Source of the DNA: a virus
Taxonomy: Duplodnaviria; Heunggongvirae; Uroviricota; Caudoviricetes
IMG/VR virus record: IMGVR_UViG_2579778952_000011
Span: 1-21,093 of that record
Reading direction: 5' to 3' (one strand)
Length of the DNA stretch: 21,093 bases
Part shown: positions 1-16,679 of the stretch, piece after piece
Position numbering within the stretch: position 1 is the first letter of the stretch
Layout: every line of letters begins with the position of its first letter
The notes under the pieces: model-generated
The model's input: the letters and a program-made list of their open reading frames with translations, nothing else
Database searches by the model: none
What the model was told of the DNA's origin: nothing
Position numbers and translations under genes: made by a program

Positions 1-1005
1 TTAATCCCCCGTGGACACTGCGTGGACACTCACGCCACCTTTCAGCGGATTAAGGGCCACCGCATCCTGCAGGTAATCCGGTGCAAAATGTGCATATGCC
101 ATTGTTTGCTGAATGGTTGCGTGGCCAAGAATCTTCTGAAGCGCAATAATGTTTCCTCCGTTCATCACAAAATGGCTGGCGAACGTATGCCGCAGCACAT
201 GCGCAGCCTGGCCTTTTGGCAAATCGGGCTTAACCCTTTTCAGCGCCAGGCAGAATTCCCGGTACTTCACCTCAAACAAGTTGCCTGTTTCTCTGGTTCT
301 GATCGCCTCACAAACCGCCTGTGAAATTGGCACCGTTCTCTTCCGGCCATTTTTGGTTTCAAGAAACGTTACACGGTTATGAACTATCTGTTCACCACGA
401 AGCTTACAAGCTTCACTCCAGCGCGCCCCTGTGCTTAAACACAAAAGCGCAACACGCCAGTAGTCGCCCTCCAGTGTATCGAGCAATAGCGCCACTTCCT
501 TCTGTGACAGGAACGCCATTTCTCGTGGAGATACATAAAGAATAGAAATTCCCCTTACTGGATGTTCTGCATCCCAAAGACCTATTTTTTTCAGCACGGT
601 AAACATTCCGGATAACCGATTCATGTACCTGTTAGCAGATGACGGTTTCAATCCAGCAGCTATCTTTTGAGAACGCCACGCGATAATTTTCAGCTTATCA
701 AGATCCACAGCCTGCATATCAGCGCCAAGCTCATTGATTATGTTGCACAGTTGTTTTCGGTCTTCTTCCGCCTTACGCCTGTGTTGACCGTGATACATCC
801 ACCACAACTCAAGCAAATCATTTAGCGTTCGGCGATCACGGTAGCCCTGTATATATTCCCGCTTTTCAGCGTTCGCCATGATGTAGCGTTCAGTGGCCAC
901 CGCTACCGATTTTTTGTCAAATACCTTACGCACGCGCTTTCCCTTGCGTCCGTTCGGCCTGATGTCCAGCAAATAACGACCATCTTCGAGCTTCTTAATT
1001 GACAT
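1..1005 (-). CDS. int: Tyrosine-type phage integrase (P2 Int-like)
   Basis: The open frame runs 1..1020 with a TTG at 1018..1020. I place the start at the ATG at 1003..1005 (MSIKKLEDGRY...), which has a GGAGGG Shine-Dalgarno 7 nt upstream; that gives 334 aa. The C-terminal catalytic region has R...HxxRH...Y-like spacing (VLRHTFASH...TMAYAH). Stop TAA is at 3..1 on the minus strand. Confidence 0.9.
   Translation of the reverse strand: MSIKKLEDGRYLLDIRPNGRKGKRVRKVFDKKSVAVATERYIMANAEKREYIQGYRDRRTLNDLLELWWMYHGQHRRKAEEDRKQLCNIINELGADMQAVDLDKLKIIAWRSQKIAAGLKPSSANRYMNRLSGMFTVLKKIGLWDAEHPVRGISILYVSPREMAFLSQKEVALLLDTLEGDYWRVALLCLSTGARWSEACKLRGEQIVHNRVTFLETKNGRKRTVPISQAVCEAIRTRETGNLFEVKYREFCLALKRVKPDLPKGQAAHVLRHTFASHFVMNGGNIIALQKILGHATIQQTMAYAHFAPDYLQDAVALNPLKGGVSVHAVSTGD
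11..28 (+). repeat. Putative attL core (gtggacactgcgtggaca), lying inside the last codons of int
   Basis: Matches 19913..19930 (gtggtcactgcgtggaca) at 17 of 18 positions, in direct orientation, exactly at the two expected prophage ends. Confidence 0.6.
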
Positions 1006-1101
1006 TGCGAAGCCCTCCAATGAACCGCCCTACAATTTCTCCAGCCTCTTTCCAGCAATAATCAGACCAGACAAAGAGCAGGTCTAACCAGTTTTCTGGC
1101 C

Positions 1102-1440
1102 TTAGCGGGGTGATTTTTGGTTTGTTTCGGTTGAAACCTGATCGCCCTCCGAATCGAAGAAGCCATCAAGAGAGAGAGGCGGAGCAATCTGCCCCGTCGC
1201 AGCATTAGTTTGATTAAACATCACCCAATCCGAATACTTCCGAAAACGAGGATGATTCAAAATCAGGAGTAACGTTTCTCCAGGTATCATTCTTCCCAAT
1301 ATTTCATAATTTTTGAGATTGTATTGAGATACCCCTGTCACCTCCTCCATCTCTCTACGTGACAATCCCTCTGCCTCTCGAATCAGGCGAAGTTTTTCTC
1401 CAAGGCTTGATTTATGGATCATATGTGATCTAAACTCCAT
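1102..1440 (-). CDS. C: C-type immunity repressor (P2 C-like)
   Basis: A 106-112 aa ORF immediately upstream of int on the same strand, with a helix-turn-helix-like segment (LSRREMEEVTGVSQYNLKNYE) and a GQIAP motif that I recall from P2 C. The start may instead be the internal ATG at 1422. Confidence 0.7.
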   Translation of the reverse strand: MEFRSHMIHKSSLGEKLRLIREAEGLSRREMEEVTGVSQYNLKNYEILGRMIPGETLLLILNHPRFRKYSDWVMFNQTNAATGQIAPPLSLDGFFDSEGDQVSTETNQKSPR

Positions 1441-1470
1441 GCTATTGGGTTACATGTGATACAAAACATT

Positions 1471-1537
1471 CAAATAGCCAAAATAAGCCTATATAAGCCA
1501 TTTTGGGCCATTTGGACGAATTAAGGAGATTACCACA
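1471..1537. promoter_or_regulatory. Divergent early promoter/operator region between the repressor and the cox-like gene
   Basis: Intergenic and AT-rich, with 10-bp-phased direct repeats (ataagcc at 1483 and 1493; gccatttt/gccatttgg at 1497 and 1507) and an AAGGAG Shine-Dalgarno at 1523..1528 ahead of the ATG at 1538. Confidence 0.4.
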
Positions 1538-1735
1538 ATGAGCGAATCAGAGCTTGAGGGGTTCATTCAGGTAGCACCATATCCACTTGAAGCGGTGCCA
1601 TATCAACTATTTGCCAAGATGATTGGTCGCAAAGAATCAACCGTCAGAACCATGATTGACGCTGCAAAGTTACCAACGATTGACTTTGTAAAACCAGGTT
1701 CAGTGAAGACGCGAGCATCAGAAAACTGGGTATAA
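1538..1735 (+). CDS. cox: Cox-like excisionase/transcriptional regulator, probably C-terminally truncated
   Basis: A 65-aa ORF divergent from C with a good Shine-Dalgarno. The segment PYQLFAKMIGRKESTVRTMIDAAKLPTIDF resembles the Cox DNA-binding region as I recall it. P2 Cox is about 91 aa, and this ORF is followed directly by late gene L instead of B/A. Confidence 0.5.
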   Translation: MSESELEGFIQVAPYPLEAVPYQLFAKMIGRKESTVRTMIDAAKLPTIDFVKPGSVKTRASENWV

Positions 1736-1752
1736 CGACTGACCCCGTCAGC

Positions 1753-1823
1753 GGGCGGCGTGCGCGGTGTTCCGGTTTGACTCCGTGACCGTTTACACCG
1801 CGCACCCACCGCCCGATTTTTTT
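1753..1823 (+). terminator. GC-rich imperfect hairpin followed by a T7 run (intrinsic terminator-like)
   Basis: gtgcgcggtgt (1760..1770) pairs with acaccgcgcac (1795..1805), extended by gggcgg/ccgccc, then ttttttt at 1817..1823. The loop is long (about 24 nt), so strength is uncertain. Confidence 0.45.
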
Positions 1824-1838
1824 CAGGAGTGAACCCCC

Positions 1839-2333
1839 ATGAGTATGGTTGCCAGAACTGAACCAAGACCCGCAGAGGACGACATCACCGATACCGATGA
1901 TGGTGATACCCGTATTTCAGCGGGTGCATTCTGGCCGGATATTGTGCTGCGTGAGCTGCGTCTGGCGATACGACTGCCGGGCCGTGTGACCACCTCCCGC
2001 CTGCTGCATACCGCCACCGGGGCAGTGGCACACGTTACCCGCGAGCTGGAAGCGTGGCAGCAGGAACAGCAGGCGGCTGGCCATCTGACGCTGGCCGATG
2101 TTCCGGCACCCGTAATTAACGGAGAAAGCGTCAATCTCTGGCACTGGCGCAATGCTGTTTATACCGCCACACGCGCCCTGATTCTGGAGCGTTACCGCGA
2201 TGCGGACACAACGGACAAGGGCGACCGCAGGGCGGACGCACTGGATATACAGACATCGGATTTGTGGCGTGATGTGAGCTGGGCCATCTCTGACATTCTG
2301 TGCCGCCCGCGAATCTTTGCGGAGTTGTGCTGA
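1839..2333 (+). CDS. L: Head completion/stabilisation protein (P2 gpL-like)
   Basis: A 164-aa ORF immediately upstream of X whose stop overlaps the X start. Position and size match P2 L; identity is inferred from synteny more than from motif recall. Confidence 0.6.
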   Translation: MSMVARTEPRPAEDDITDTDDGDTRISAGAFWPDIVLRELRLAIRLPGRVTTSRLLHTATGAVAHVTRELEAWQQEQQAAGHLTLADVPAPVINGESVNLWHWRNAVYTATRALILERYRDADTTDKGDRRADALDIQTSDLWRDVSWAISDILCRPRIFAELC

Positions 2334-2533
2334 TGAAAGTAAAGGCACTGGAAGGCGACACCGTGGATTCGCTCTGTTTCCGGTACTACGGCACGACGCA
2401 GGGCGTCACCGAAAAGGTGCTGGATGCCAACCCCGGACTCTGCCAGCAGGTATTTCTGGACGCCGGGCAGGACGTGGAGATGCCAGAGCCGGAGAAGAAG
2501 AAACGAGAAATGATTCAGTTGTGGGGGGAGTAG
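2333..2533 (+). CDS. X: Tail protein X (small LysM-like tail component)
   Basis: A 66-aa ORF (MKVKALEGDTVDSLCFRYYG...) with a LysM-like fold signature, ATGA overlap with L, and the expected position before the holin. Confidence 0.8.
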   Translation: MKVKALEGDTVDSLCFRYYGTTQGVTEKVLDANPGLCQQVFLDAGQDVEMPEPEKKKREMIQLWGE

Positions 2534-2535
2534 CA

Positions 2536-2859
2536 GTGAGCACCATTCAAACAGGGATCACAGAGCAGGTTATTGCGTGGCTCTTTGACCACCTGCCAAC
2601 GGTGTATGCAGTAGGCGCGGCGGTCAGCATTTCCGCGCTGATGAGTCTTTATGACGGACGAACACTGGTTCAGACCGTAACGGGATCGCTGGCGTGCGGC
2701 GTTCTTGCCATGGCCGTGGCCGGGTCGTTGCGCTTCTTCGGGTTTCCTGAAGATGCCGTGACGTTTATCGGCGCATCAATCGGTTTTATGGGGGCAGAGA
2801 AAGCACGCGACAAGGTTATTGCGGCCTTTAATCGCAGGGTGAAGGAGAAGGACGAATGA
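2536..2859 (+). CDS. Y: Holin
   Basis: GTG start 6 nt after a GGGGGGAG Shine-Dalgarno; 107 aa with 2-3 hydrophobic helices and a charged C-terminus (KARDKVIAAFNRRVKEKDE). ATGA overlap with the endolysin start. Confidence 0.75.
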   Translation: MSTIQTGITEQVIAWLFDHLPTVYAVGAAVSISALMSLYDGRTLVQTVTGSLACGVLAMAVAGSLRFFGFPEDAVTFIGASIGFMGAEKARDKVIAAFNRRVKEKDE

Positions 2860-3248
2860 GCAACACATTTAAATTCAGCAGCCGGAGCGAAAAGAATTTG
2901 CAGGGCGTAAACCCTGATCTGGTGAAAGTGACCCGACGGGCACTGGAAATTTCGGAAGTGGATTTTGGTATCACCGAAGGGTTGCGCAGCCGTTACCGCC
3001 AGAAGCAACTGGTGGCCACAGATAAGAGCCAGACCATGAACAGCCGCCACCTTACGGGACATGCTGTGGATGTTGTGGCTTATATCGGCAGCCAGGTGTC
3101 ATGGGAATGGCCGCTGTACGAAAAAATCGCAGCAGCATTCAGACAGGCCAGCCGGGAACTGAATATTCCGGTGGAATGGGGCGGCGACTGGAAGACCCTG
3201 AAAGACGGACCGCATTTTCAGTTACCACACGGAGTCTATCCGGCATGA
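2856..3248 (+). CDS. Endolysin, peptidase M15-type (L-alanyl-D-glutamate peptidase-like)
   Basis: A 130-aa protein with the SRHLTGHAVDV and WGGDW...HFQ zinc-peptidase motif pattern. It sits between holin and spanins. It is not the P2 K lysozyme type. Confidence 0.8.
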   Translation: MSNTFKFSSRSEKNLQGVNPDLVKVTRRALEISEVDFGITEGLRSRYRQKQLVATDKSQTMNSRHLTGHAVDVVAYIGSQVSWEWPLYEKIAAAFRQASRELNIPVEWGGDWKTLKDGPHFQLPHGVYPA

Positions 3249-3652
3249 AGCTCTGGCCCACGCTGGGTGTTGCTTTCCTTCTGATTGCCGCATGGGGAAC
3301 ATCCATGCGTCTGTCGTGGTCGCTGGGCCGGGAGAACGCCAGAAACGAAGCGCAGGCCAGCGCCCTGAAAAGTACCGCCGACACCCTGAATATCATCAGC
3401 GCCGGGGTACAGGATATGCAGCAGGTGCTGGCGCAACTCCGCGTGGAAAATCAGCAACGCAATCAGGACGGAGAGGCCAGACGTGAACAGCTACGCAACG
3501 ATATTGCAAAAGATGAATGCGCCCACGCTTTGCCTGACGCTCGTTTTACTGACAGGCTGCGCAGGCACGCAGAACGCGCCACTGCCAGCGCCGTCAGTCC
3601 GGCTTATACCGCAGACGCTGACCATACCGGTAACGCCTCCCCCCTTCCCTGA
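3245..3652 (+). CDS. lysB: i-spanin (Rz/LysB-like)
   Basis: ATG at 3245 overlaps the endolysin stop. N-terminal TM helix (LWPTLGVAFLLIAAW) followed by a coiled-coil-like, charged periplasmic domain. Confidence 0.7.
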   Translation: MKLWPTLGVAFLLIAAWGTSMRLSWSLGRENARNEAQASALKSTADTLNIISAGVQDMQQVLAQLRVENQQRNQDGEARREQLRNDIAKDECAHALPDARFTDRLRRHAERATASAVSPAYTADADHTGNASPLP

Positions 3653-3803
3653 CACTCCCACATGGGGAAATCTCGGTATATGGGGCGACCGCCTTCTGGA
3701 TGCACTGGAAACCTGTAACGCGGATAAACGGGCCATTGAATTACTGGAACAGCGCAGGCTGCAACGACTGAACAACGAGGACAACAACCATGCTGAAAAC
3801 TGA
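3483..3803 (+). CDS. lysC: o-spanin lipoprotein (Rz1/LysC-like), overlapping lysB in another frame
   Basis: Signal peptide with lipobox LLTGC and a proline-rich mature region (PLPAPSVRLIPQTLTIPVTPPPFP). It starts inside lysB and extends beyond it. The start may be the ATG at 3513. Confidence 0.7.
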   Translation: MNSYATILQKMNAPTLCLTLVLLTGCAGTQNAPLPAPSVRLIPQTLTIPVTPPPFPDTPTWGNLGIWGDRLLDALETCNADKRAIELLEQRRLQRLNNEDNNHAEN

Positions 3804-4257
3804 TTCCCTGCGTGAAGCCATGACCCGTTCATGCCGATGGTGTCAGGCTAACCCGGAAAAATTCACCATTTTCGTGGAGAGCGGCAACATTGAAACGACC
3901 GGAGAAACGCCCTCGTTTGTTTACCGCTATCAGATGGTGATGTTTGTCATGGATTACGCCGGGGAGCTGGACGACCTCACGCTGCCGCTACTGGCGTGGT
4001 TATCCGAAAATCAGCCACAGTTGTTGCTCAATCCGGAGCGTAATCAGGACATCAAATTTTCCGCCGTTATCAATGACGATGACAGCGCCGATCTCCTGTT
4101 TACGCTCCCCTTGCGGGAACGCGTTCGCATCACGCGCAGCAGTCAGGGCACACCGCAGGCAGAACACCTGCCGGAGCCAAAACCCCGCCTGCCATCTTCC
4201 GCAGGCGACTGGTCGCATGTATTCCAGGATGTGACGTGGGGTGAAAGCGATGGATAA
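3790..4257 (+). CDS. R: Tail completion protein R
   Basis: A 155-aa ORF, the same size as P2 gpR, in the expected position with translational coupling to lysC and S. Confidence 0.75.
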   Translation: MLKTDSLREAMTRSCRWCQANPEKFTIFVESGNIETTGETPSFVYRYQMVMFVMDYAGELDDLTLPLLAWLSENQPQLLLNPERNQDIKFSAVINDDDSADLLFTLPLRERVRITRSSQGTPQAEHLPEPKPRLPSSAGDWSHVFQDVTWGESDG

Positions 4258-4885
4258 GGCATTCACCCGCGTGGATGAAACCTTTGAGGCCATTCGCGAC
4301 AGCCTGAATCAGCAGGCCATCAATAACATCGCCAGAAAGCTGGCACAGGATTTACGTCGCGCCCAGCAGGCGCGTATCCGGTCACAGAAAGCGCCGGACG
4401 GGACCGCGTGGACACCACGCAGACGCCGCGTAACCCGGATACAGGAGCGCATTCGTTTTATCTGGAATAACGAAGCACGCACGCTGAAAAACTGGCATCA
4501 CGACACGGGGAAATACGGGCGAACCATCACCGGGTGGGATGAGGATAAAAACAGCATCCGCACGTTTTACCGGGATGACATCGACCGCTTTCTGGAAATA
4601 CGCACCCGGCGCATCGACCAGGACAGCACCAGGCGCGTCCCCATGTTCGTAAAACTGCGCACCGCCCGCTACCTGAAAGCCCGTGCAGATGCTTCCGGTG
4701 TGACGGTGGGTTACAGCGGCGTGGCCGCACGTATTGCACGCGTTCATCAGTTCGGTGAGCGCGATCAGGTTGCGCCGGGCATTTTCACCGATTACCCGGT
4801 ACGTGAGCTGCTGGGTATCAGCCAGGCAGATGAGCGCCTGATTTATAACACGGTGCTGGGCCGGATTGCGGAGGCTGTACAGTGA
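4250..4885 (+). CDS. S: Tail completion / virion morphogenesis protein S
   Basis: ATG at 4250 overlaps the R stop (ATGGATAA). At 211 aa it is longer than P2 S as I recall it, suggesting an insertion or extension. Confidence 0.65.
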   Translation: MDKAFTRVDETFEAIRDSLNQQAINNIARKLAQDLRRAQQARIRSQKAPDGTAWTPRRRRVTRIQERIRFIWNNEARTLKNWHHDTGKYGRTITGWDEDKNSIRTFYRDDIDRFLEIRTRRIDQDSTRRVPMFVKLRTARYLKARADASGVTVGYSGVAARIARVHQFGERDQVAPGIFTDYPVRELLGISQADERLIYNTVLGRIAEAVQ

Positions 4886-5463
4886 GCGCAGAACTCATGC
4901 GACTGCTGAGCAACATCATCCGCACCGGGATCATCTCTGAAGTTGATGAGAAGTCCTGGTGCGTGCGCGTTCGCAGCGGCGAACTGGAAACAGGCTGGTT
5001 ACGCTGGAACACCACGCGCGCAGGAGCCTTCAACGTGTGGCTGCCGCCATCACCCGGCGAACAGGTGGTAATTGCCTGCATTGGCGGCAACCCGGAAACC
5101 GCCATGATAATTGGCAGCCTGTGGAGTGATGCCAATCCGGCACCCGGCAAAAGCCTGAAAGAAATCGTGATCAGCGCGCCGGACGGCGCGGTGTTCCGCT
5201 ACGACGCGGACGCAGGCGCACTGAGCGCCAGCGGCATGAAAACGGCCACTTTACAGGCATCCGTCAGCGTGAAACTGGATACGCCCGTCGTGGAATGCAC
5301 AAACCTTCTGAGAACAGCGACGCTTGACGTCACAAAAGGGGGAAAGATGAGCGGCAATATCACGCACAGCGGCGGCGATTTCACCTCAAACGGCATCACA
5401 GTGCATACGCATAAACACGGTGGCGTGAAAGGCGGCAGCGATTCGACAGGAGGCCCGCAGTGA
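4882..5463 (+). CDS. V: Baseplate central spike protein V
   Basis: GTG start overlapping the S stop; 193 aa. N-terminal OB-fold-like region and a Gly-rich C-terminus (HSGGDFTSNGITVHTHKHGG), typical of gpV/gp5-like spikes. Confidence 0.8.
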   Translation: MSAELMRLLSNIIRTGIISEVDEKSWCVRVRSGELETGWLRWNTTRAGAFNVWLPPSPGEQVVIACIGGNPETAMIIGSLWSDANPAPGKSLKEIVISAPDGAVFRYDADAGALSASGMKTATLQASVSVKLDTPVVECTNLLRTATLDVTKGGKMSGNITHSGGDFTSNGITVHTHKHGGVKGGSDSTGGPQ

Positions 5464-5810
5464 CAACCCGCTACACAGGAATGAATCCGGACGGGACGGG
5501 AAACCTGAACGATATGGAGCACCTGAAACAGTCAGTCAGGGACATCCTGACCACCCCGCTGGCAAGCCGGGTTATGCGACGGGAATATGGCAGCCTTGTG
5601 CCTGATTTGATTGACGAACCCATGAATAACACCACGCGTCTGCAATGCATGAGTGCTGCCGTGATTGCGCTGACACGATGGGAACCCCGCATTGCCCTGG
5701 ATGCCATCGACGTTGTCTGGAAAGCGGGAGGCCGCGCAGGGGTGATGCTGTCGGGCACTGTCATGCAGACCATGCAGAATGTTGAGTTAACCATCACGCT
5801 GAGGGAGTAA
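5460..5810 (+). CDS. W: Baseplate wedge protein W (gp25-like)
   Basis: A 116-aa ORF with start overlapping the V stop; its size and position match gpW. Confidence 0.8.
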   Translation: MTTRYTGMNPDGTGNLNDMEHLKQSVRDILTTPLASRVMRREYGSLVPDLIDEPMNNTTRLQCMSAAVIALTRWEPRIALDAIDVVWKAGGRAGVMLSGTVMQTMQNVELTITLRE

Positions 5811-5813
5811 ATC

Positions 5814-6710
5814 ATGCCTGCTGTTGACCTTTCCCAGTTACCGGAACCCGCCATCATCGCGGAGCCTGATTTTGAGGCAATTCTGGCTGACACAAAGGCC
5901 ATGATGATTGCGGCTTATCCCGCCGAACAGCGTGAAGCCGTTTCCGCCGCGCTGGAGCTGGAATCGGAACCCCTTAACGTTATCGCTCAAACCATGTCGT
6001 TTCGTGAAATGCTGTTACGCCAGCGGGTCAATGAGGGGGCTCGCGCCTGCATGTTAAGCCACAGCGCCGGGACAGACCTGGACAACCTCGCGGGCAATAT
6101 GAACACAAAGCGCCTGACCATCACTCCGGCAACGGATACCACCGACGCGGTGATGGAGAGTGACACCTCACTGAGACTGCGGGCGCAGCGGGCGTACGAC
6201 GGCCTGAGTGTTGCTGGCCCGTCAGGTGCATACGAGTATTTTGCCCGCAGCGCCAGCGGTCTGGTGCGTGATGCGCGGGCCATCAGCCCGTCTCCGGCAA
6301 ATGTGACGGTTTCCATCCTGTCCACTGAAGGCGACCGCACAGCAACGGAGGCGTTGCTTAATACCGTTCGCGCCGTTCTGAATGCAGAGGATACCCGTCC
6401 GGTGGCCGACCGCCTGACCGTACAGAGTGCCAGAATCGTGACATGGCGGCTGAATGCAAAACTGTACTTTTACCCCGGCCCGGAATCCGAACCTATTCTG
6501 GCTGCGGCGGAATCGTCGTTCAGGAAGTGGCTGGCTGAGCAGGGGCTTATCGGTCAGGACGTGGCGTTGTCCGCCATTGCTGCCGCACTGCATGTGCACG
6601 GTGTGCAACGCGTGGAGATAATCGAACCCACACAGAATATGGCCATCAGCGACATACAGGCGGCGCGCTGTGAGTCGTTCACCATCAGCGAAGGTGGGCG
6701 TAATGAGTAA
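5814..6710 (+). CDS. J: Baseplate assembly protein J
   Basis: A 298-aa ORF between W and I; its size matches P2 gpJ. Confidence 0.8.
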   Translation: MPAVDLSQLPEPAIIAEPDFEAILADTKAMMIAAYPAEQREAVSAALELESEPLNVIAQTMSFREMLLRQRVNEGARACMLSHSAGTDLDNLAGNMNTKRLTITPATDTTDAVMESDTSLRLRAQRAYDGLSVAGPSGAYEYFARSASGLVRDARAISPSPANVTVSILSTEGDRTATEALLNTVRAVLNAEDTRPVADRLTVQSARIVTWRLNAKLYFYPGPESEPILAAAESSFRKWLAEQGLIGQDVALSAIAAALHVHGVQRVEIIEPTQNMAISDIQAARCESFTISEGGRNE

Positions 6711-7233
6711 TTCGTTGTTACCCCCATCAGCCAGCAATTTCATGCGTTGTGCAGAAGCCGTCGGAACACGCATTACAGACATCCCGGTAGACCTCAACAC
6801 ACTGTGGTCCCCGGACACCTGCCCGGTGCACCTGCTGCCTTATCTCGCCTGGGCATTTTCCGTTGACCGCTGGGATCGCAACTGGCCGGAAGAGACAAAG
6901 CGACAGGTTATTCGTGATGCATGGCTGATACACCGACACAAAGGGACCATCAGCGCACTGCGCCGGGCCATTGAGCCGCTGGGATACCTCATTCGCGTGT
7001 CTGAGTGGTGGGAATTCGGCGGAGAACCGGGAACATTTACCGTTGAAGTCGGCACGCTGGACAGTGGCGTGACGGAGGAAATGTATCTGGAAATGGAGCG
7101 GTTGATTGCTGATGCCCGCCCGGTCAGCCGCCACATGACAGGGCTGAATATCATTCAGGAAATTCCGGGGGATATTTTCGCAGCGGCGGCAACTTATGAC
7201 GGTGAAGTTATCACCATTTATCCAGGCGATTAA
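6703..7233 (+). CDS. I: Baseplate protein I
   Basis: ATG at 6703 overlaps the J stop; 176 aa, the same as P2 gpI. Confidence 0.8.
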
Positions 7234-7235
7234 GC

Positions 7236-9632
7236 ATGAGTACCACAACACGAAAATTTAAAACCGTTATCACCGATACGGGTGCAAAAAAATTAGCTCA
7301 GGCAGCCGCGCCAGATGGTAAGCCTGTCCGCCTGACTCATATGGCCGTGGGCGACGGTGGCGGCACGTTGCCCACACCAGACAGTAAGCAGACCCGTCTG
7401 GTGCATGAGGTGTGGCGACATACTGTTAATCGCGTCATCCTGGACGCAACACATCAGAATCGCATTATTGCGGAGCTGGTTATTCCTCCAGAAACGGGCG
7501 GATTCTGGATCCGGGAAATTGGTGTGTTTGATGAGCACGGCGATTTAATCGCGGTGGGCAATACTGCCGAAAGTTACAAGCCAGCCGTTGCCGAAGGGTC
7601 CGGTCGTGCACAAACATTTCGCACCATTCTGACCGTATCCAGCACTGCCACTGTGGCGCTTACCGTGGATAACACCATGGTGATGGCCACAGTGGATTAC
7701 GTGGATAACAAACTGAAAGAGCATGAACAGTCACGACGTCACCCGGATGCCTCGCTGACCGCAAAAGGCTTTGTTCAACTCAGTAGCGCCACTAACAGCG
7801 TGTCTGAAACACAAGCTGCAACGCCGAAAGCAGTAAAGGCCGCGTATGACCTTGCTAACGGGAAATATACTGCGCAGGATGCCAGCACAACGCGAAAAGG
7901 CCTTGTCCAGCTCAGTAGCGCCACCAACAGCGATTCTGAAACGCTGGCGGCAACACCAAAGGCGGTAAAGGCAGCATATGACCTTGCTAACGGGAAATAT
8001 ACCGCACAGGACGCTACCACAGCGCGAAAAGGTCTTATCCAGCTCAGCAGTGCGACTAACAGCACTTCCGAGTCACTGGCGGCAACGCCAAAAGCCGTTA
8101 AGGCCGCGTATGAGCTGGCTAACGGGAAATACACCGCACAGGATGCAACGACAGCACAGAAAGGGATAGTTCAGCTTAGCAACGCGACCAACAGCACATC
8201 TGAAACGCTGGCGGCAACGCCAAAGGCGGTAAAGGCAGCATATGACCTTGCTAACGGGAAATATACCGCACAGGACGCTACCACAGCGCGAAAAGGTCTT
8301 ATCCAGCTCAGCAGTGCGACTAACAGCACTTCCGAGTCACTGGCGGCAACGCCAAAAGCCGTTAAGGCCGCGTATGAGCTGGCTAACGGGAAATACACCG
8401 CACAGGATGCAACGACAGCACAGAAAGGGATAGTTCAGCTTAGCAACGCGACCAACAGCACATCTGAAACGCTGGCGGCAACGCCAAAGGCGGTAAAGGC
8501 AGCATATGACCTTGCTAACGGGAAATATACCGCACAGGACGCTACCACAGCGCGAAAAGGTCTTGTCCAGCTCAGTAGTGCAACCAACAGCACGTCTGAA
8601 ACGCTTGCCGCGACCCCGAAAGCGGTTAAAGCTGCTAATGACAATGCAAACGGGCGTGTGCCCTCTGGACGTAAGGTTAATGGCAAACCACTGACCAATG
8701 ATGTCAATGTTACATCACAGGATATTTTTAACGGTCAGAGTATTAATATTGGTGCAAACCAGAATCTGGATAATTACAAAACGCCGGGGCTGTACCATCA
8801 ACCCCTGAATGCCTATACAAGTGCAGCGCTGAAATACCCAGAGAATCTTGCCGGTACACTGGTTGTGCTTAAAAATGCCGGGATAACACAGATTTACTAT
8901 GTGTATAACACATCCAGAAGCTATACCCGCAGCCAGTACTCAACGGGTGACTGGACAGCATGGACGCCGCAGGATTCATTTCCTGTAGGTGCGGCGATTC
9001 CGTGGCCTTCTGATTCAGTGCCTACAGGCTATGCCGTTATGCAGGGGCAGACTTTTGATAAAACAACCTATCCCCTGCTTGCAGCAGCTTATCCCTCTGG
9101 TGTACTCCCCGATATGCGTGGCTGGACAATCAAGGGCAAACCCGCCAGTGGTCGGGACGTATTGTCTCTGGAACAGGATGGCATTAAATCGCACACCCAC
9201 AGCGCCAGCGCATCCAATACGGATTTGGGTACGAAAACCACATCTTCGTTTGATTACGGTACTAAATCAACGAATAACACAGGTGCACATACCCACAATG
9301 TATCTGGTACTGCAAATAGTGCTGGCGCACATACTCATACCGTGCCATTAAGGAGACCAAACAGTGGCGGTATGAATTTCGACTGGCTGGATGGTGCATC
9401 AAGTGGCACGGTGGTAGGGAATGGAACTGTGCCTTCTTCTGGCGCACATACCCACTCAGTATCAGGCACCGCTACAAGTGCTGGGGCACATGCACACACT
9501 GTTGGTATTGGCGCTCATACGCACTCTGTTGCGATTGGTTCACATGGACATACCATCACCGTTAACGCTGCTGGTAACGCGGAAAACACCGTTAAAAACA
9601 TCGCATTTAATTATATTGTGAGGCTTGCATAA
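7236..9632 (+). CDS. H: Tail fibre protein H with expanded fibre repeats and a His-rich distal tip
   Basis: 798 aa. Conserved P2 H-like N-terminus, seven tandem 44-aa repeats (KG[FLI][26 protein letters not shown]), a tail-collar-like segment ([28 protein letters not shown]) and repeated GAHTH motifs. Confidence 0.9.
7764..8687 (+). repeat. Seven tandem 132-bp coding repeats inside H, including an exact 264-bp tandem duplication
   Basis: Sequence 7957..8300 is identical to 8221..8564 (344 bp at a 264-bp offset). Successive repeat units begin at 7764, 7896, 8028, 8160, 8292, 8424 and 8556. Confidence 0.9.
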
Positions 9633-10249
9633 TGGCATTCAGAATGAGTGAACAATCACGCACTGTAAAAATTTATAACCTGCTGGCCGGAACTAATGAG
9701 TTTATTGGTGAAGGTGACGCATATATTCCACCTCATACAGGGCTGCCAGCTAATTCTACAGATATCGCCCCACCGGAAATTCCTGCTGGCTTTGTGGCAG
9801 TTTTTAACAGTGAAAATGAATCGTGGAATATTGTTGAAGACCATCGTGGTAAAACGGTCTATGACGTGGCATCGGGGGACGCGTTGTTTATTTCTGAACC
9901 CGGACCGCTACCAGAGAATGTCACCTGGTTGTCGCCAGCAGGGGAATATCAGAAGTGGGACGGCGTATCCTGGGTGAAGGATGAGGAAGCAGAAAAACTG
10001 TTTCGGATACGGGAAGCGGAAGAGAAAAAGGCAAGGTTGATCCAGGAGGCAACAGATAACATCGCAATCCTGCAGGATGCAGTTAATCTTGAAATAGCAA
10101 CAAACGAGGAAAATTCACAACTGGATTCCTGGAGAAAATACAGAGTATTAGTGAGTAGAATTGACACCAGTACAGCTCCGGATATCGTATGGCCAGAGCT
10201 GATGAATCAGGGTTATGTGCGGGAGGACGAGCAGATAACTTCAGACTGA
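9632..10249 (+). CDS. G: Tail fibre assembly chaperone (Tfa/gpG-like)
   Basis: TAATG overlap with the H stop; 205 aa; position and size typical of Tfa. AT-rich relative to the tail core genes. Confidence 0.8.
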
Positions 10250-10776
10250 AATTTAGTGATGAATGTTGAATCATCAGGAATATCATGCAATACCAATGCA
10301 TGAGCACCTATTGTGACATTGTTTCCTATACGCACTTTGCCACCAAGAATGGTGGCATTACAACCAATGGTCACATTATGTCCTATAACAATATCCATAT
10401 CATTAAAATCACCACGTAGCCCAATAGTTACCCCCGGTTTTATTGAACAATTTTCACCGATTGTTACTTTGTGACCGATAACAACACTGTTGAGATAAGA
10501 AATATCAAAACCTTTCCCTATATTTACAGTTAAAGGGACTGTTACATTATATTTATCAAGAATGAAACGTTCTATTTTCCCCGCAATCTTCCGACAGTAT
10601 CCGCCTTTATCAAAAAGGTATTTGGCTATGCGCCACCAAAATAAATAACGAAGTCTTCTATGTTTTATTGCGCGAACAATTGCCTTTCGCCAGGAGAAAG
10701 GACGCTCGCTACCGATTACTTCATAGTGAATACAGTCTTTAAGTTCATTAATATTCATATCTCTATTATTCAGCAT
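10213..10776 (-). CDS. Hexapeptide-repeat (left-handed beta-helix) acyl/acetyltransferase, CysE/WcaB-like; moron
   Basis: Clear [LIV]-G-x4 hexapeptide repeats ([20 protein letters not shown]...[35 protein letters not shown]) after an N-terminal helical region. Sits in an AT-rich island. Its 3' end overlaps the G stop convergently by 37 bp. Confidence 0.8.
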
Positions 10777-10899
10777 AAGATAATCATGTGACCAATTATT
10801 GTAATAATTTTAATGGTATGTTTCTACTGGCTATCCAGCGTGTCTGATACCCAGTAACAAATCGTTAACACAGGTGCAATCAAATGGTGAGTGTTAAGA

Positions 10900-10939
10900 C
10901 TGGCCACTTATTACCAGGTATGAGGGTATGAGTGGCCAG
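10900..10939 (-). other. 9-bp inverted repeat (ctggccact / agtggccag) enclosing a tandem ggtatgag ggtatgag, immediately 3' of U
   Basis: Seen directly in the sequence. Could be a weak terminator or protein-binding site at the left edge of the minus-strand tail block. Confidence 0.3.
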
Positions 10940-10946
10940 CATTAAA

Positions 10947-11441
10947 TCAGAACAGCCCTTTAACTGAACTGGCCGCGCTGTTAAGGGATGATGTCACTTT
11001 ATCTTTGAAGCCGGACAGAATATCGCTGAACGATGAGGATTGCAGGCGCTCCCGCAAATCCTCATCACAGCGTTCAAGGGTCAGTGAAAATTCTATCTTT
11101 TTCGCCTTACCGTAGCGATCAAACTCGGAACGGGTCGTATTCGTTTCGGTCAGGACATACATGCCGTAAATCTGCCCGACGCCATCAATAAGAGGCCAGG
11201 GGCGTCCTGTATACGCCTGCGTGGTCAGCAGCGACAGCGACACTTCGCCACCTGTAATTTCAGGATAAAGCACACCAGAAAGAACGATGCGATCATCACC
11301 TGCACCGATATACTGCCAGCTTGCTGAACGGTTAACGCGTTCATTTTTCACATGCCGCCAGCTTTTGTTTTGCTGTAACTGCTGATGCGGCAGCGTGCGC
11401 AGCTCAAAAACAAACATGCCGTAGATCATCATCATGGCCAT
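10947..11441 (-). CDS. U: Tail protein U
   Basis: A roughly 162-aa ORF directly downstream of T on the minus strand. GAGGAG Shine-Dalgarno; the start is probably the second ATG at 11435. Confidence 0.75.
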   Translation of the reverse strand: MAMMMIYGMFVFELRTLPHQQLQQNKSWRHVKNERVNRSASWQYIGAGDDRIVLSGVLYPEITGGEVSLSLLTTQAYTGRPWPLIDGVGQIYGMYVLTETNTTRSEFDRYGKAKKIEFSLTLERCDEDLRERLQSSSFSDILSGFKDKVTSSLNSAASSVKGLF

Positions 11442-11447
11442 GACTCC

Positions 11448-14291
11448 TCAATCTTTATCGTAAAAACTGCCACGCCCGGCATGGGCACGCCGTTCCATTT
11501 CTGCCCTGACCATTTCACCGACCAGTTTCGCCAGTTCGCGGGGATTCTGCGTAACAACGTTATGCAGATGAACATGAATTTCACCACCAAATCCGGAGGC
11601 AACAGGCTCCCGGTTACGGGAAGTTGCAGGAACTGATGCCACTGGCGATCGTATGGCCTCCGCCACCGGGTGAGAGCTGGCCGCAACAACAGGGACCAGC
11701 GCCGGAGGCAGCGGAGCCGGAACCACGGGGGTGATATTAATTGCGGGGGCAGGCTTACTGACCTGTGTAATCTTCCGCTCCTGCCACTCCCCACGAACAG
11801 CAAGTGCGCGGGGCAGGTTCTTAAAGACAATATCGCCGGGGCCAATGCGTTTTTTCGTCTCATCAACCAGCTTACCTGTGTTATCAGCAATTTTGCTGAG
11901 TCTGCGTAGCGTCCCGGTATTGCTGTCTGTGAGCGGTTTGTTGTCTTTGGGTTTATCACCTCCGGTGCCATTGCCATTTTCCACAGGCTTCGGCGGATTG
12001 ATTTTCGCCAGGTCCCCCTGAAGTAAGGCTACCTTGTCCTGAAGAATGGCCGCACGCTGTGCGTCTTCGATTTTCTTGCGCGCCCTTTCCGCTTCATCCG
12101 GAAGGACGCCAAGTTTTTCAAGTATCCACGCCAGCGTATCCAGTAGCATTTTTGCAGGTGTCAGAACAAGTTGTAACGCACCGCCAAGAACGTTACCGAA
12201 TATCTCGCCAGCACTGGTACATTTATCCAGCGTTTCCTTGCTGGACTCCATCGGTGACAGTAGCGATTTAAACCAGTTAAACACCTGGCTGATCCCGCTT
12301 CCGATTGCGTCAAAAACAGGACCAAACCGTTCAAAAGTTTCGCGCAACGGGGTCAGCCTTTCCATAATCCCGCTGAACACCCCGGCAAAAAATGCCCTGA
12401 TGGGATCCCAGTATTTCCAGATAAGAACGGCAGCTCCGGCAAGCGCAGCCACGATAAGACCAACCGGACTGAACAGCGCCCCGATAGCACCTCCCAGCAA
12501 AGAAACGGAACCCGTCACCATTCCCCATAGTGCTGGCAGGAGCCTGACAGCATTCATTGATCCGGTCAGGAGGGAAAAACCAAGACGCAGTTTTGCCAGC
12601 GGGCCAGCAAGCACACCAAGAGCAAGCGACAACGAGCCTACGGTTGCAGTCACTGCCAGCAGCGCACCGCCTGCAATCAGTAGCTGGCGCGTCAGTACAG
12701 GATGGGCCTGCGCCAGTACCGTCACCTTTGAGACCACCCGTGTTAGCCACTGCGTGACAGAACGCAGCGGACCGTCAACCAGATCACTGATGCGAATACG
12801 AAGACCTTCCCATGCGCTGTCGAGATTTTTCAGGTCGCCATCAAGGTTGTCGGCCATAACCTTTGCCGTGCGTTCAGCCTCACCGCGTGCGCCCTCAAGT
12901 TCTTTTCTCAGTTTGGGTAAGGAACCGTCACCCGCCGCATCAACGAGTGCCATAAACGATGTGAAAGCCTCTTCCCCGGCGATATCCTTAAAGAAGGATA
13001 CCCGGTCAACTTCCCCGTATTTGCGGGTAGCTTTATAAAGGTCAGCCAGCAGATCTTCCATCGGGCGCATTTTGCCCCCGGCATCCGAAACGGACACGCC
13101 CAGCTCTTTCAGAGCTTCTGCCGCCGCCTTTGGCGGTGATGCCAGACGAGCCAGGCTGGCACGCATTGCCGTCCCGGCATCACTCCCTCTGATGCCCATA
13201 TTCGCCAGCACGCCCGCCATCGCTGCGGTCTGCTCCAGCGATATTCCCAGCTTACCCGCCACCGGACCTGCATATTTCATGGTTTCGCCCAGTGCGCGAA
13301 GGTCAGTGTTGGTACGGGTAAACGCTGCGGTGAGTGTGTCACCGACCCGGTCCATCTGGTCAGCAGAAAGGCCGAACTGCGTCAGGATATTTGAGCCAAT
13401 ATCTGCCGTCTCGCCGAGATCCATACCGCCAGCCGTTGCCATGCTCAGCACGCCGGGAAGCGCAGCCTGAATGGCCTGCGGAGTGAAGCCAGCCATTGCA
13501 AGAAATGCCTGTCCACTGGCGGCATCGCCTGCGGTGAACTGCGTTTCAGAGCCAAGTTTTAACGCCTGCTCACGCAGCGCCTTAAACTGCGGGCTGTTCT
13601 GGTCGATTCGCGTCAGTGCCTGAACGCGGGACATCTCTTTGCCGAACCCGATCGCAGGCTGCAAAAAACGCCCGGCAGCATAGCCGCCCGCCGCTGCCGC
13701 ACCAATTGCCAGTGCACCACCTGTTTTCAGTTTTCCCGCTGTTTCCTGCGCGCGCGAATACCGCTCACGCGCCCGCGTTACACGCGCAAGCGCCTGCCGT
13801 TCGCGTTCAAGCTGATTGTTGTACTGTTCGGTGCGTCTGATGGCCTGCTGGATGGTGTTATCGCTGCCTGTCAGGGAAATGCCGTGGCGTTTCAGCTCTC
13901 CGCCAAGCTCCCGCATTTTCTGAATTTCCCGCGTGCGCGATTCATTCAGGCGTTCAAGCCGGGTGCTTAACTGCTGCATCAGCTTTTGTTGTTTTTCGCT
14001 GAGCACTGTACCCGTGCGTTGTAACTGATTAAGGGCGTTAAGCTGGCGTCGTGCTTTCACGATACCCGCATCCGCTTTACTGACAGCGTCGCGGGCGCGC
14101 TCAAATGAACGCGCCTGACGCTCGAGATTTTTGATCGCCCCCTGCGTTCGCTGGATGGAGTCACCAAACTGCCCCATCAGGCGGCGGGCGTTTTCGGCAG
14201 GCTGGGTCAGCCTGTCAACGGCGCTGAAAGCGACCCGGATATCAAGAGTCTTCATTGTCTGCATTCCCGCTGCGAAGTGCCGCCCGCTCAC
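11448..14291 (-). CDS. T: Tail tape measure protein T
   Basis: 947 aa, with an N-terminal coiled-coil-rich region, central hydrophobic/Gly-Ala-rich segments and a long helical region; lies downstream of E/E'. Confidence 0.9.
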   Translation of the reverse strand: MSGRHFAAGMQTMKTLDIRVAFSAVDRLTQPAENARRLMGQFGDSIQRTQGAIKNLERQARSFERARDAVSKADAGIVKARRQLNALNQLQRTGTVLSEKQQKLMQQLSTRLERLNESRTREIQKMRELGGELKRHGISLTGSDNTIQQAIRRTEQYNNQLERERQALARVTRARERYSRAQETAGKLKTGGALAIGAAAAGGYAAGRFLQPAIGFGKEMSRVQALTRIDQNSPQFKALREQALKLGSETQFTAGDAASGQAFLAMAGFTPQAIQAALPGVLSMATAGGMDLGETADIGSNILTQFGLSADQMDRVGDTLTAAFTRTNTDLRALGETMKYAGPVAGKLGISLEQTAAMAGVLANMGIRGSDAGTAMRASLARLASPPKAAAEALKELGVSVSDAGGKMRPMEDLLADLYKATRKYGEVDRVSFFKDIAGEEAFTSFMALVDAAGDGSLPKLRKELEGARGEAERTAKVMADNLDGDLKNLDSAWEGLRIRISDLVDGPLRSVTQWLTRVVSKVTVLAQAHPVLTRQLLIAGGALLAVTATVGSLSLALGVLAGPLAKLRLGFSLLTGSMNAVRLLPALWGMVTGSVSLLGGAIGALFSPVGLIVAALAGAAVLIWKYWDPIRAFFAGVFSGIMERLTPLRETFERFGPVFDAIGSGISQVFNWFKSLLSPMESSKETLDKCTSAGEIFGNVLGGALQLVLTPAKMLLDTLAWILEKLGVLPDEAERARKKIEDAQRAAILQDKVALLQGDLAKINPPKPVENGNGTGGDKPKDNKPLTDSNTGTLRRLSKIADNTGKLVDETKKRIGPGDIVFKNLPRALAVRGEWQERKITQVSKPAPAINITPVVPAPLPPALVPVVAASSHPVAEAIRSPVASVPATSRNREPVASGFGGEIHVHLHNVVTQNPRELAKLVGEMVRAEMERRAHAGRGSFYDKD

Positions 14292-14771
14292 GCCAGCTAA
14301 CCACTTCGCCGGGCGTCATCATGAAGATTTCGGCGGGCGACCAGTTAAAAATAACGGCAATATCTGCCACAAAGTCTTCTATGTGCTCAAAGCACACAAC
14401 CGTGATCAGGCTTCCGTCGCCTGTTCGTTCTTCCCGCCAGAGTCCGCACCGCTCAAAAAATTTACGGCAACCACACATAACTGAATAAAGTCACGGGATG
14501 CCATTTTTTTGATCGTCACTTCATCCAGTCGCGGTGATGTCACTCGTGACAGCAGCGTAAACATGGATTCCGCTTTCAGATTCAGCACATCAGACAGCGA
14601 CAAATCTCGCAGAGATCCAGCCTGCTCAATAGCCCCGGTGATCTCCACATACGTGATTTTTTCGCCGCCTCGCTCAATTGGTTGGGTAAGTTTTACGCCA
14701 CGCTCACTGGTTTCTTTCACAGTGTCAGCAACTACCGTGTTTTCGGTATCGATGTTTTTCGTCTCTTTCAT
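14242..14771 (-). CDS. E': E+E' tail chaperone produced by a programmed -1 frameshift
   Basis: The -1 frame is open from the slippery site T.TTT.TTG (minus strand; plus-strand coordinates 14454..14460) to 14242, overlapping the T start. This is the same arrangement as P2 E/E' and lambda G/GT. Confidence 0.55.
14406..14771 (-). CDS. E: Tail assembly chaperone E
   Basis: A 121-aa ORF between FII and T that ends just after a TTTTTTG slippery heptamer. Confidence 0.75.
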   Translation of the reverse strand: MKETKNIDTENTVVADTVKETSERGVKLTQPIERGGEKITYVEITGAIEQAGSLRDLSLSDVLNLKAESMFTLLSRVTSPRLDEVTIKKMASRDFIQLCVVAVNFLSGADSGGKNEQATEA

Positions 14772-14825
14772 CAGGAAACTCCTTTCAGTCAGAGGCGACG
14801 CACTGCGCCGCCTGCATATTACTTA

Positions 14826-15338
14826 TCAGCCAAGCCCAAGCGCGGAACGGATGCGATCGGGCACAATGTCCTTGCCGTCCTTCCGGTAAATGAAGTTCAG
14901 CAGGTCAATCTCCCACAACGGACGATCGTTAACACTCAGCTTGTAGTAGGTGTTTTTAATGGCGTAAGTGTGTGATGTGGCTTCGCCCTGTTTGGCTTCC
15001 CCCATATCAATTTCCGTCACGCGTCCGCGCATTTCGACTTCATACAGGTCGCTTTCTGCATCGGTGTAGTATTCACCCGCAAAACGCAGTAGCGTGCCGT
15101 CAATCGTGCCGCCATACTTAAGGAACAGCTCACGAACTGCGCCCCCCATGACAAAGCTCGCATCAAGCGCGGAGTCGTCCAGACCGAGATCAATACTTAC
15201 CGCACCCATCATGCCACCACCCCGGTAGCTGTCGGTTTTGCGCGTCAGTTTAGGCAGGGTGACGGACGTCACCTTACCCACTTCGTTTTCACCATCCACA
15301 AACAGCGTAAAAAAGCGAAGATGTTTTGGTACAGCCAT
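14826..15338 (-). CDS. FII: Tail tube protein FII
   Basis: A 170-aa ORF directly after the sheath gene with an overlapping stop/start; its size matches P2 FII. Confidence 0.85.
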   Translation of the reverse strand: MAVPKHLRFFTLFVDGENEVGKVTSVTLPKLTRKTDSYRGGGMMGAVSIDLGLDDSALDASFVMGGAVRELFLKYGGTIDGTLLRFAGEYYTDAESDLYEVEMRGRVTEIDMGEAKQGEATSHTYAIKNTYYKLSVNDRPLWEIDLLNFIYRKDGKDIVPDRIRSALGLG

Positions 15339-16522
15339 CAGGCACCTCCCAGCACCGCAAATGCGGGACCAAAGAATTCATCAGTAAACGACTGGTAAAG
15401 CTCCATGTCTTCCAGCGGAGGAACGGGCGTATATTTGTAGCGAATACGCACACGCCCCTGACGTAAATCCGTGGTGCTGTTATCCACCACGTCATACCAG
15501 CACGACGCCCCAATCAGTTTCCCGGCAGTAACCAGTGAATCCAGTTTTGCCCTGATGGCACTGATAACATCCTTCACGTTCGCAGGCGTCAGTGGACTAT
15601 CGATGGTTTCAAACTGCGCTTCCGCAATTGAATCAGCCAGCACCTGTGCGGTTCGGGTATACACCTCAAAGATGTAGGCGTTCGTTTCCGGTGTGCGGTT
15701 GCCCCAGAAGCGGAACCCGTTGCGACGAATAATGGTCGTGATTTCTTTGTTGTTGAGGCTGTTGGCATCACTGTCTTCGGCCTGCAACGACCAGAACACA
15801 TGCCTGGACATCCCCAGCACATTTTTAACCGGAACGTTGGACAGCGATTTGTGCCAGCCCTGCTCATGGTCAATGTACGCACGAAGGCCGCACGCATAGG
15901 CAGGCGCGGGGAACGTTTCGTTTTTGCCACTTTTCGGGTTGTAGGCGATGAAGTCCGGCCATAAGAGCATCACCTCACGTTCGTTGAATTTCTGGCGGTA
16001 GGTAATCGCCTCAGCCATCGTGTTACAGCCGTGACATGAGGCATACACAAACGCGCGCAGTTTACCCGCAATCACGCACAGGGATTTTGTTACCGCCTCC
16101 GTGTCCAGCTCCGGCGCGGCCAGAATACGCGGACGGTATCCGATGCTTTCATCCTGCTCTGCAACAAGCAGCGCATACATCCCCGTATAGCTGCCGTCAG
16201 ATTCAGAACCACCGATAACCAGTTGATCCTGCGTTTTTCCGTCTTCTTCTTTGTGTTCAGCCACGCGAACGACGATCACCTTTGTACTCACCTGGTCTGC
16301 GATGGCCTTAAGCGCACGATAAAGCGTCCCCGTTGTCCCGCATTTTCCCAGCACGTCATTGACGCGGGTCAGCAGTGTGGGCTTGTTCAGCGGGAACAGC
16401 TTCGCGTCCGCATCATCCGCCGTTGCCACGATACCGATAACGCTGGAATCAACATCGTTAATCGCTGTTACCAGGTCGGTATTTTCCGTAACACGGGCAC
16501 CATGAAAACGAGTTTCACTCAT
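15338..16522 (-). CDS. FI: Contractile tail sheath protein FI
   Basis: 394 aa (P2 FI is about 396), with AAGGGG Shine-Dalgarno 8 nt before the ATG; first gene of the minus-strand tail block. Confidence 0.9.
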   Translation of the reverse strand: MSETRFHGARVTENTDLVTAINDVDSSVIGIVATADDADAKLFPLNKPTLLTRVNDVLGKCGTTGTLYRALKAIADQVSTKVIVVRVAEHKEEDGKTQDQLVIGGSESDGSYTGMYALLVAEQDESIGYRPRILAAPELDTEAVTKSLCVIAGKLRAFVYASCHGCNTMAEAITYRQKFNEREVMLLWPDFIAYNPKSGKNETFPAPAYACGLRAYIDHEQGWHKSLSNVPVKNVLGMSRHVFWSLQAEDSDANSLNNKEITTIIRRNGFRFWGNRTPETNAYIFEVYTRTAQVLADSIAEAQFETIDSPLTPANVKDVISAIRAKLDSLVTAGKLIGASCWYDVVDNSTTDLRQGRVRIRYKYTPVPPLEDMELYQSFTDEFFGPAFAVLGGA

Positions 16523-16679
16523 AGCTTCAGCCCCTTGTATCCGTTAAATGATTCGGCAACAATCATCACCCACCACGCGCGTAATCTCACCCCTGCGCCG
16601 TTCTCTCGCCACGGCGACAACAAAAAGCAGTAACCCCCTCCGCACGCACATGCGACCATGCCGCACAGGGAGGGAGCAG

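Follow-up and report, generated by a model that had tools for sequence, protein, structure and literature searches.

The tail fiber gene H of a P2-like prophage in Escherichia coli 2-011-08_S1_C1 is, judging by its sequence, the common five-repeat allele of this gene with a clean tandem copy of units 3 and 4 added. The gene lies within a 21,093-nucleotide stretch of DNA that was analyzed in full and is called the window here. This arrangement probably, although by no means certainly, arose through a recent in-frame 264-bp tandem duplication, presumably generated by recombination or slippage at an 81-bp direct repeat (called R) in a five-repeat progenitor. Such an allele is an ordinary variant in the repeat number of a known tail fiber gene, carried by a decaying prophage. 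Because shaft repeat-number polymorphism in phage tail fibers is already well known, the biological weight of the variant is very small.

The gene and its surroundings can be described by three features.

Positions 7236..9632, plus strand: tail fiber gene H of a P2-like (peduovirus-type) prophage, an intact reading frame of 798 aa (ORF list and Pfam).
Positions 8970..9629, plus strand: C-terminal receptor-binding tip of H, T4 gp37 needle-like by its match to PDB 2XGF.
Positions 9632..10249, plus strand: tail fiber assembly (chaperone) gene G (Pfam Caudo_TAP, E 1.6e-39), which is also annotated in relatives.

The H protein carries an N-terminal Phage_tail_fib domain at aa 6–153 (PF12571, E 6.5e-54), a tail-collar fiber domain that attaches the fiber to the baseplate. 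Its shaft contains seven Phage_fiber_2 stretches (PF03406, E 1.4e-136), in agreement with an earlier note on this DNA that had described seven 44-aa fiber repeats. A Collar domain is found at aa 585–632, and a Phage_fiber match is also present but weak. Near the C terminus, aa 579–798 align with residues 26–242 of the 2XGF chain at E values of 4e-81 to 4e-82, and the His-x-His repeats of the gp37 needle domain are visible in this alignment. The last repeat region of H aligns to the Mu tail fiber protein S structures 5YVQ and 8JU3.

Pfam matches among the ORFs around H include baseplate J (Baseplate_J), tail protein I (Tail_P2_I), Caudo_TAP, gpU, the tape measure, the sheath, and gpD. The gene order I-H-G is the same as that annotated in relatives, and H occupies its usual position in a late operon ordered V-W-J-I-H-G. 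Together, the PF12571 domain, the operon position, and the Phage_fiber_2 repeats identify 7236..9632 as a predicted P2-type H gene. Like P2 gpH and the peduovirus fibers, its product combines a Phage_tail_fib N terminus with Phage_fiber_2 repeats, and the gene is followed in the I-H-G order by a Tfa-type chaperone gene. However, the gene aligns to P2 H over only part of its length, at about 80% identity in DNA, the tip resembles that of T4 gp37, and seven repeats is the maximum among the P2-type H genes examined (the others have three to six). Mosaic fiber C termini common to unrelated phages were reportedly described by Haggard-Ljungquist et al. in 1992.

The repeat array within H has the following parts, where B stands for the sequence between successive copies of R.

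Positions 7764..8687, plus strand: seven shaft repeats of 132 bp (44 aa) each, arranged as u1 u2 u3 u4 u3 u4 u5 relative to the five-repeat allele.
Positions 7956..8219, plus strand: first copy of the 264-bp block, comprising the 3′ part of unit 2, unit 3, and the 5′ part of unit 4, and identical to 8220–8483.
Positions 8220..8483, plus strand: second copy of the 264-bp block, whose removal yields the common five-repeat allele with 0 mismatches.
Positions 7956..8036, plus strand: R1, an 81-bp exact direct repeat that is also present in the progenitor allele and is the presumed crossover substrate.
Positions 8220..8300, plus strand: R2, the middle 81-bp copy, forming a novel B-R-B junction, with flanking bases 8219 and 8301, by which the duplication can be diagnosed.
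Positions 8484..8564, plus strand: R3, the third 81-bp copy, where the exact identity ends.

When cut every 132 bp, the 44-aa units run in register from 7764 to 8687, each starting with KG(L/I) and ending with (R/Q). Tandem Repeats Finder reports a period of 264 with 2.9 copies (93% matches, score 1335) and, as a second call, a period of 132 with 6.6 copies over 7763–8631. The sequence at 7956–8300 is exactly that at 8220–8564, and this identity of 345 bp at an offset of 264 bp is one base longer than the earlier note had given. Units 3 and 5, and likewise units 4 and 6, are 100% identical in DNA, whereas the remaining pairs are 76–91% identical. Thus, the exact identity is far beyond chance. 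The C-terminal half of unit 7 is divergent, with 61–64% DNA identity to the other units. Units 1–4 differ from one another by 148 nucleotide differences, 113 of which fall at third codon positions, and their codon changes are predominantly synonymous (90, against 34 nonsynonymous). The perfect identity appears as an exception in what these comparisons indicate is an old, diverged array under purifying selection.

The origin of the window allele is evident from its relatives. When H was compared with 5,426 complete E. coli genomes, its best matches covered the full query while spanning only 2133 or 2001 bp in the matched record. When 8220–8483 is removed, H is identical at 2133 of 2133 bp to the H gene of E. 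coli 67-1. Similarly, window positions 1729–21093, after the same collapse, match the complete genome of E. coli E400634 (Kenya) with 99.99% identity over 19.1 kb, and the sole differences are one SNP at 6336 and an indel at 1732 that is part of a deletion junction. Because the collapsed window is nearly identical to these relatives and H has changed in length alone, the duplication, if real, would be very recent, as the earlier note had proposed for the event.

The five-repeat protein (WP_042064115.1, 710 aa) is found on 308 contigs, including those of 67-1 and E400634. Its gene shares with the window the 2133 bp that remain after collapse, the prophage, the pdxB-flk site, the G chaperone, and the gp37-like tip. 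In contrast, it carries units 3 and 4 only once (710 rather than 798 aa), and the window allele is known from one contig. A four-repeat protein (WP_266161023.1, 666 aa, E200086) is represented on 38 contigs and occurs in complete genomes. Its gene is the five-repeat allele minus exactly 132 bp with 0 other mismatches, and the crossover lies within a 14-bp identity at 8118–8132. This exact deletion in complete genomes demonstrates that real changes in repeat number occur in H. The four-repeat allele resembles the window allele in having the same background and in differing by one exact unit change, which indicates that length shifts through recombination between units. However, it is a 132-bp contraction through 14 bp of identity, whereas the window carries a 264-bp expansion through 81 bp.

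A comparison of orthologous H genes, as the earlier note had suggested, confirms that repeat number varies. Translated orthologs have five repeats in 67-1, four in E200086, RM8352, and 22AR0750, and three in UTAK-6 and phage Chuche. Among the full-length proteins in the best 120 homologs and in the query's own cluster, three, four, or five repeats are present, and seven are found only in the query. The series of four, five, and seven repeats on one background offers a clean natural case of recombination between short direct repeats, and could be used for rate measurement.

These comparisons also bear on the proposal in the earlier note that ongoing homogenization might explain the perfect identity. 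Gene conversion or homogenization was rejected as an explanation, since a length change of exactly +264 bp is the only difference between H in the window and H in its nearest relatives. Homogenization among repeats with no change in repeat number is therefore a most improbable source of the identity. Units 1–4 are 9–24% apart in DNA, mostly at third codon positions, which is incompatible with homogenization across the array; the older units differ mostly at synonymous positions, and thus the array has not been generally homogenized. On the other side, units 2 and 4 of the progenitor share 81 identical bp, which could be left over from an earlier conversion or duplication, and identical adjacent units are also present in some other P2-type H alleles.

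A tandem duplication accommodates the anatomy of the array in a simple manner. In the collapsed allele, the 81-bp R, with a spacing of 264 bp, is the sole exact internal repeat longer than 26 bp. The duplicated block extends exactly from R to R, such that the repeat spacing equals the duplicated length. Moreover, the duplication junction is clean, oriented head to tail, and located inside R; it contains no filler, and nothing else has changed (0 mismatches over the 2133 bp left by the collapse). From this anatomy, we infer a recombination event in the common five-repeat allele, wherein the R sequence in the 3′ portion of unit 2 has an exact second copy 264 bp downstream in unit 4. Mispairing of the two R copies would duplicate the R-to-R interval and produce the order u1 u2 u3 u4 u3 u4 u5. 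Unequal crossover involving sister chromosomes and slipped-strand misalignment at a replication fork are two ways in which such pairing might come about.

The P2-type tail fiber is a trimer. The duplication would add 88 residues to each chain, placed after the N-terminal domain that attaches the fiber to the baseplate and ahead of the collar and gp37-like tip. We predict that the shaft would be lengthened, while the tip and its receptor specificity would be unchanged. The extra copy would also be prone to loss through the new 345-bp repeats.

An assembly artifact must be weighed seriously against this event. If the true allele has the structure A-R-B-R-C, then one extra pass through the R-B loop, for example by joining super-reads via the 81-bp R, would give A-R-B-R-B-R-C. 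This error would yield exactly the perfect 264-bp duplication that is observed, with endpoints in R, and the collapsed H is indeed identical to the common allele. We consider an artifact of this kind a real possibility, though short of a probable one. The 798-aa protein (KDA57397.1 / WP_032303459.1) is on record from one contig, JMGQ01000093.1 of GCA_000687125.1 (E. coli 2-011-08_S1_C1), where the window corresponds to approximately 95014–116106. This strain comes from a study that examined E. coli of children in Tanzania, and its draft genome was built with MaSuRCA 2.3.2 from 100-bp HiSeq 2000 reads, which are shorter than the 345-bp exact repeat; the authors list the genome as one of three phylogenetic “outliers” (PMC6222053). 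A 181-bp probe over the novel B-R-B junction gave no exact match in the same 5,426 genomes, where no full-length hit exceeded 95.6%, and the exact 117-nt junction pattern was not found in JGI metagenome or IMG/VR contigs. Likewise, none of the 10 places with an identical tape-measure protein (935 aa) carries a 798-aa H, the proteins there being 710 aa (eight), 666 aa (one), or a truncated 563 aa (one).

The behavior of R in other assemblies is also informative. At 81 bp, R is longer than the k-mers usually chosen, and the C-terminal fragments of H that appear in public assemblies start at R boundaries, at aa 242/243, 269, 325/331, and 350–362 of the 710-aa protein. Thus, R commonly defeats short-read assemblers. 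For example, a Logan k=31 contig from run SRR1186710, probably the run that produced this strain's reads, is 100% identical to window positions 1–7985 and ends 30 nt into R1. The earlier note had named assembly collapse as the risk at this site, but the hazard here is instead false expansion or contig breakage, and many public assemblies do break at the 81-bp repeat. The 81-bp and 345-bp repeats routinely break and may mislead short-read assemblies; therefore, H repeat counts from draft genomes cannot be trusted without reads.

Several considerations nevertheless count against an artifact. R together with both diagnostic flanking bases amounts to 83 nt, which fits within a 100-bp read, and therefore the true path is resolvable. 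False expansion would presumably require that an 81-bp overlap be preferred over a 345-bp overlap in the MaSuRCA super-reads or overlap layout. In addition, assemblers faced with repeats collapse or break more often than they expand, and repeat-number changes of the same kind are genuine in complete genomes.

If the duplication is real, its consequences depend on the state of the prophage, which is inserted between pdxB and flk. Window positions 1–1734, containing the integrase gene, a C-type repressor gene, and the 5′ part of cox, are 100% identical to E400634, and the match then resumes at the end of gpM. Relative to the intact prophage of E400634, 15,886 bp are missing, including the rest of the early region, replication gene A, and the portal, terminase, scaffold, and capsid genes. 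In P2, the replication genes are required for late gene expression. With its replication and head genes lost, the prophage is defective. Because no virions can be produced from this prophage, the H duplication is most likely neutral, as well as unstable.

One alternative is that the duplication is both real and selected, with a longer shaft matching the reach of the fiber, or of a particle that this prophage would build from a tail alone, to a thicker layer of capsule or O-antigen. We find this quite unlikely. In its favor, the window retains intact tail and lysis modules and an intact ogr, but the prophage lacks the replication genes and all head genes, and the seven-repeat allele is a singleton. 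Furthermore, sister lineages carry additional deletions that extend into the tail genes, which argues for decay over domestication. Similarly improbable is the proposal that the H array acts as a contingency locus, in which R is maintained as a substrate, populations generate four-, five-, and seven-repeat fibers, and selection picks the length best matched to the surface layer of the host. If this were true, the series of four, five, and seven repeats on otherwise identical sequence would be its footprint.

Precedents for selected fiber duplications do exist. Duplications within gp37 of T4 are said to have expanded host range, in work attributed to Tetart et al. in 1996. [quoted passage not shown] 1996 for the wider host range that accompanies the T4 gp37 duplications. 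As in H, both cases involve an in-frame internal tandem duplication that precedes the receptor-binding domain and varies in copy number. However, those duplications were selected during infection and were established by PCR or long reads, whereas H resides in a defective prophage and its copy number is that of a draft assembly.

Larger arrays of this repeat family are found in other Phage_fiber_2 fibers, which have six to eight units, some arranged as perfect 100-aa super-units. These fibers include proteins on contigs of about 93–100 kb, one phage tail protein, and lambdoid side tail fibers as named by their sources. The P1/Mu S-type and lambdoid side tail fibers share the repeat family with H, and arrays of six to eight units are common among them. 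They differ from H in that they alternate 44-aa and 56-aa units and belong to different fiber proteins.

The left end of the large deletion in the window lies in cox, which is a deletion hotspot in related prophages. At least eight prophage deletions, ranging in size from 1.8 to about 32 kb, begin at exactly the same bond in cox, ...AAAACTGGGTATA^TCTGCC. A literature search on this hotspot returned nothing relevant. No second copy of the hotspot sequence is present within the prophage, and it shows no likeness to the att core TTTTCATCAACAAGGATTTT or to the P2-type ori nick site of gpA. A stable hairpin at the hotspot is not significant (z-score −1.07). The lineages with cox deletions are 97.7–100% identical over the int-C-cox segment (window positions 1–1738). 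The truncated Cox product of the window, 65 aa in length, is found on 21 contigs, which fall into five kinds by their downstream junction, and Cox fusion proteins that diverge directly after ...ASENWVY add at least three further junctions. All of these deletions proceed rightward, and their ends lie in the early region, in gene A, in parM, at the end of gpM, at the end of gpJ, at the end of H, in the tape-measure gene, and beyond hok. Of the eight right ends that were mapped, five or six directly follow a TA or ATA, which points to putative microhomology of 2–3 nt with a defined ...TATA-3′ end.

Judged from its sequence, the window prophage, a P2-like element of E. coli 2-011-08_S1_C1, is defective. 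At its left end, two genes are found ahead of the remnant of cox:

1-1020, minus strand: integrase
1102-1440, minus strand: C-type repressor

These genes and a truncated cox directly adjoin the end of gpM and gpL (window 1-2333). Compared with the intact, 99.99%-identical prophage in the complete genome of E. coli E400634, the window prophage lacks 15,886 bp that encompass the early genes, replication gene A, parM, and the portal, terminase, scaffold, and capsid genes. The lysis module, the tail module, and ogr are still present. Once one 264-bp copy (8220-8483) is removed from the tail fibre gene H to give a collapsed window, the only base substitution relative to E400634 over positions 1729-21093 is found at 6336, a site within the baseplate J gene that carries C in the window and G in E400634.

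The cox gene (window 1538-1735) is a deletion hotspot in the window and in the related prophage loci L020-L035, with its breakpoint at 1729-1735. One exact left breakpoint, ...CTGGGTATA^TCTGCC, is common to at least eight different prophage deletions, which range in size from 1.8 to about 32 kb. The prophages that carry them are 97.7-100% identical over the int-C-cox segment (window 1-1738). The right ends of these deletions differ, and most exhibit 2-3 nt of TA/ATA microhomology. The cox breakpoint itself showed neither an IS element nor an att-like or ori-like site, and no hairpin of significant stability.

The opposite end of the island includes the following features:

18283-20000: right end of the island, carrying hok/gef
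18556-18933: zinc-ribbon gene
18938-19219 and 19594-19848: VasI/TagO-like gene, split

The VasI/TagO-like gene is unbroken in the related prophage locus L023, where it encodes 297 aa, but lies in two pieces in the window. A 20-bp direct repeat, TTTTCATCAACAAGGATTTT, is located at 19977-19996; pdxB, which lies upstream of the window, carries the other copy within its 5′ end. This repeat is likely to be the att core, and the whole element is thus located between pdxB and flk.

Public E. coli draft assemblies contain many H orthologues (P0123-P0135) in the form of “partial” tail fibre proteins that begin exactly at the borders of R, an 81-bp exact direct repeat within H. Breaks within H are routine in contigs assembled from short reads, and the number of repeats given by a draft genome is unreliable. 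The C-terminal 220 aa of the fibre (window 8970-9629) closely match the T4 gp37 needle tip structure 2XGF (E 4e-82), with conservation of its His-x-His repeats. The fibre is a clear example of tip mosaicism between a temperate P2-like phage and T-even phages.

One further gene is located between the chaperone gene G and gpU:

10213-10776, minus strand: hexapeptide-repeat sugar or serine O-acetyltransferase-like gene

It is convergent with G and overlaps the 3′ end of G by 37 bp. Its product missed the cut-offs of all NCBIfam acetyltransferase families, the best being EpsC (81 bits versus a cut-off of 150). The gene is probably cargo, and possibly a lysogenic-conversion gene; it occupies the position at which Z/fun is found in P2.
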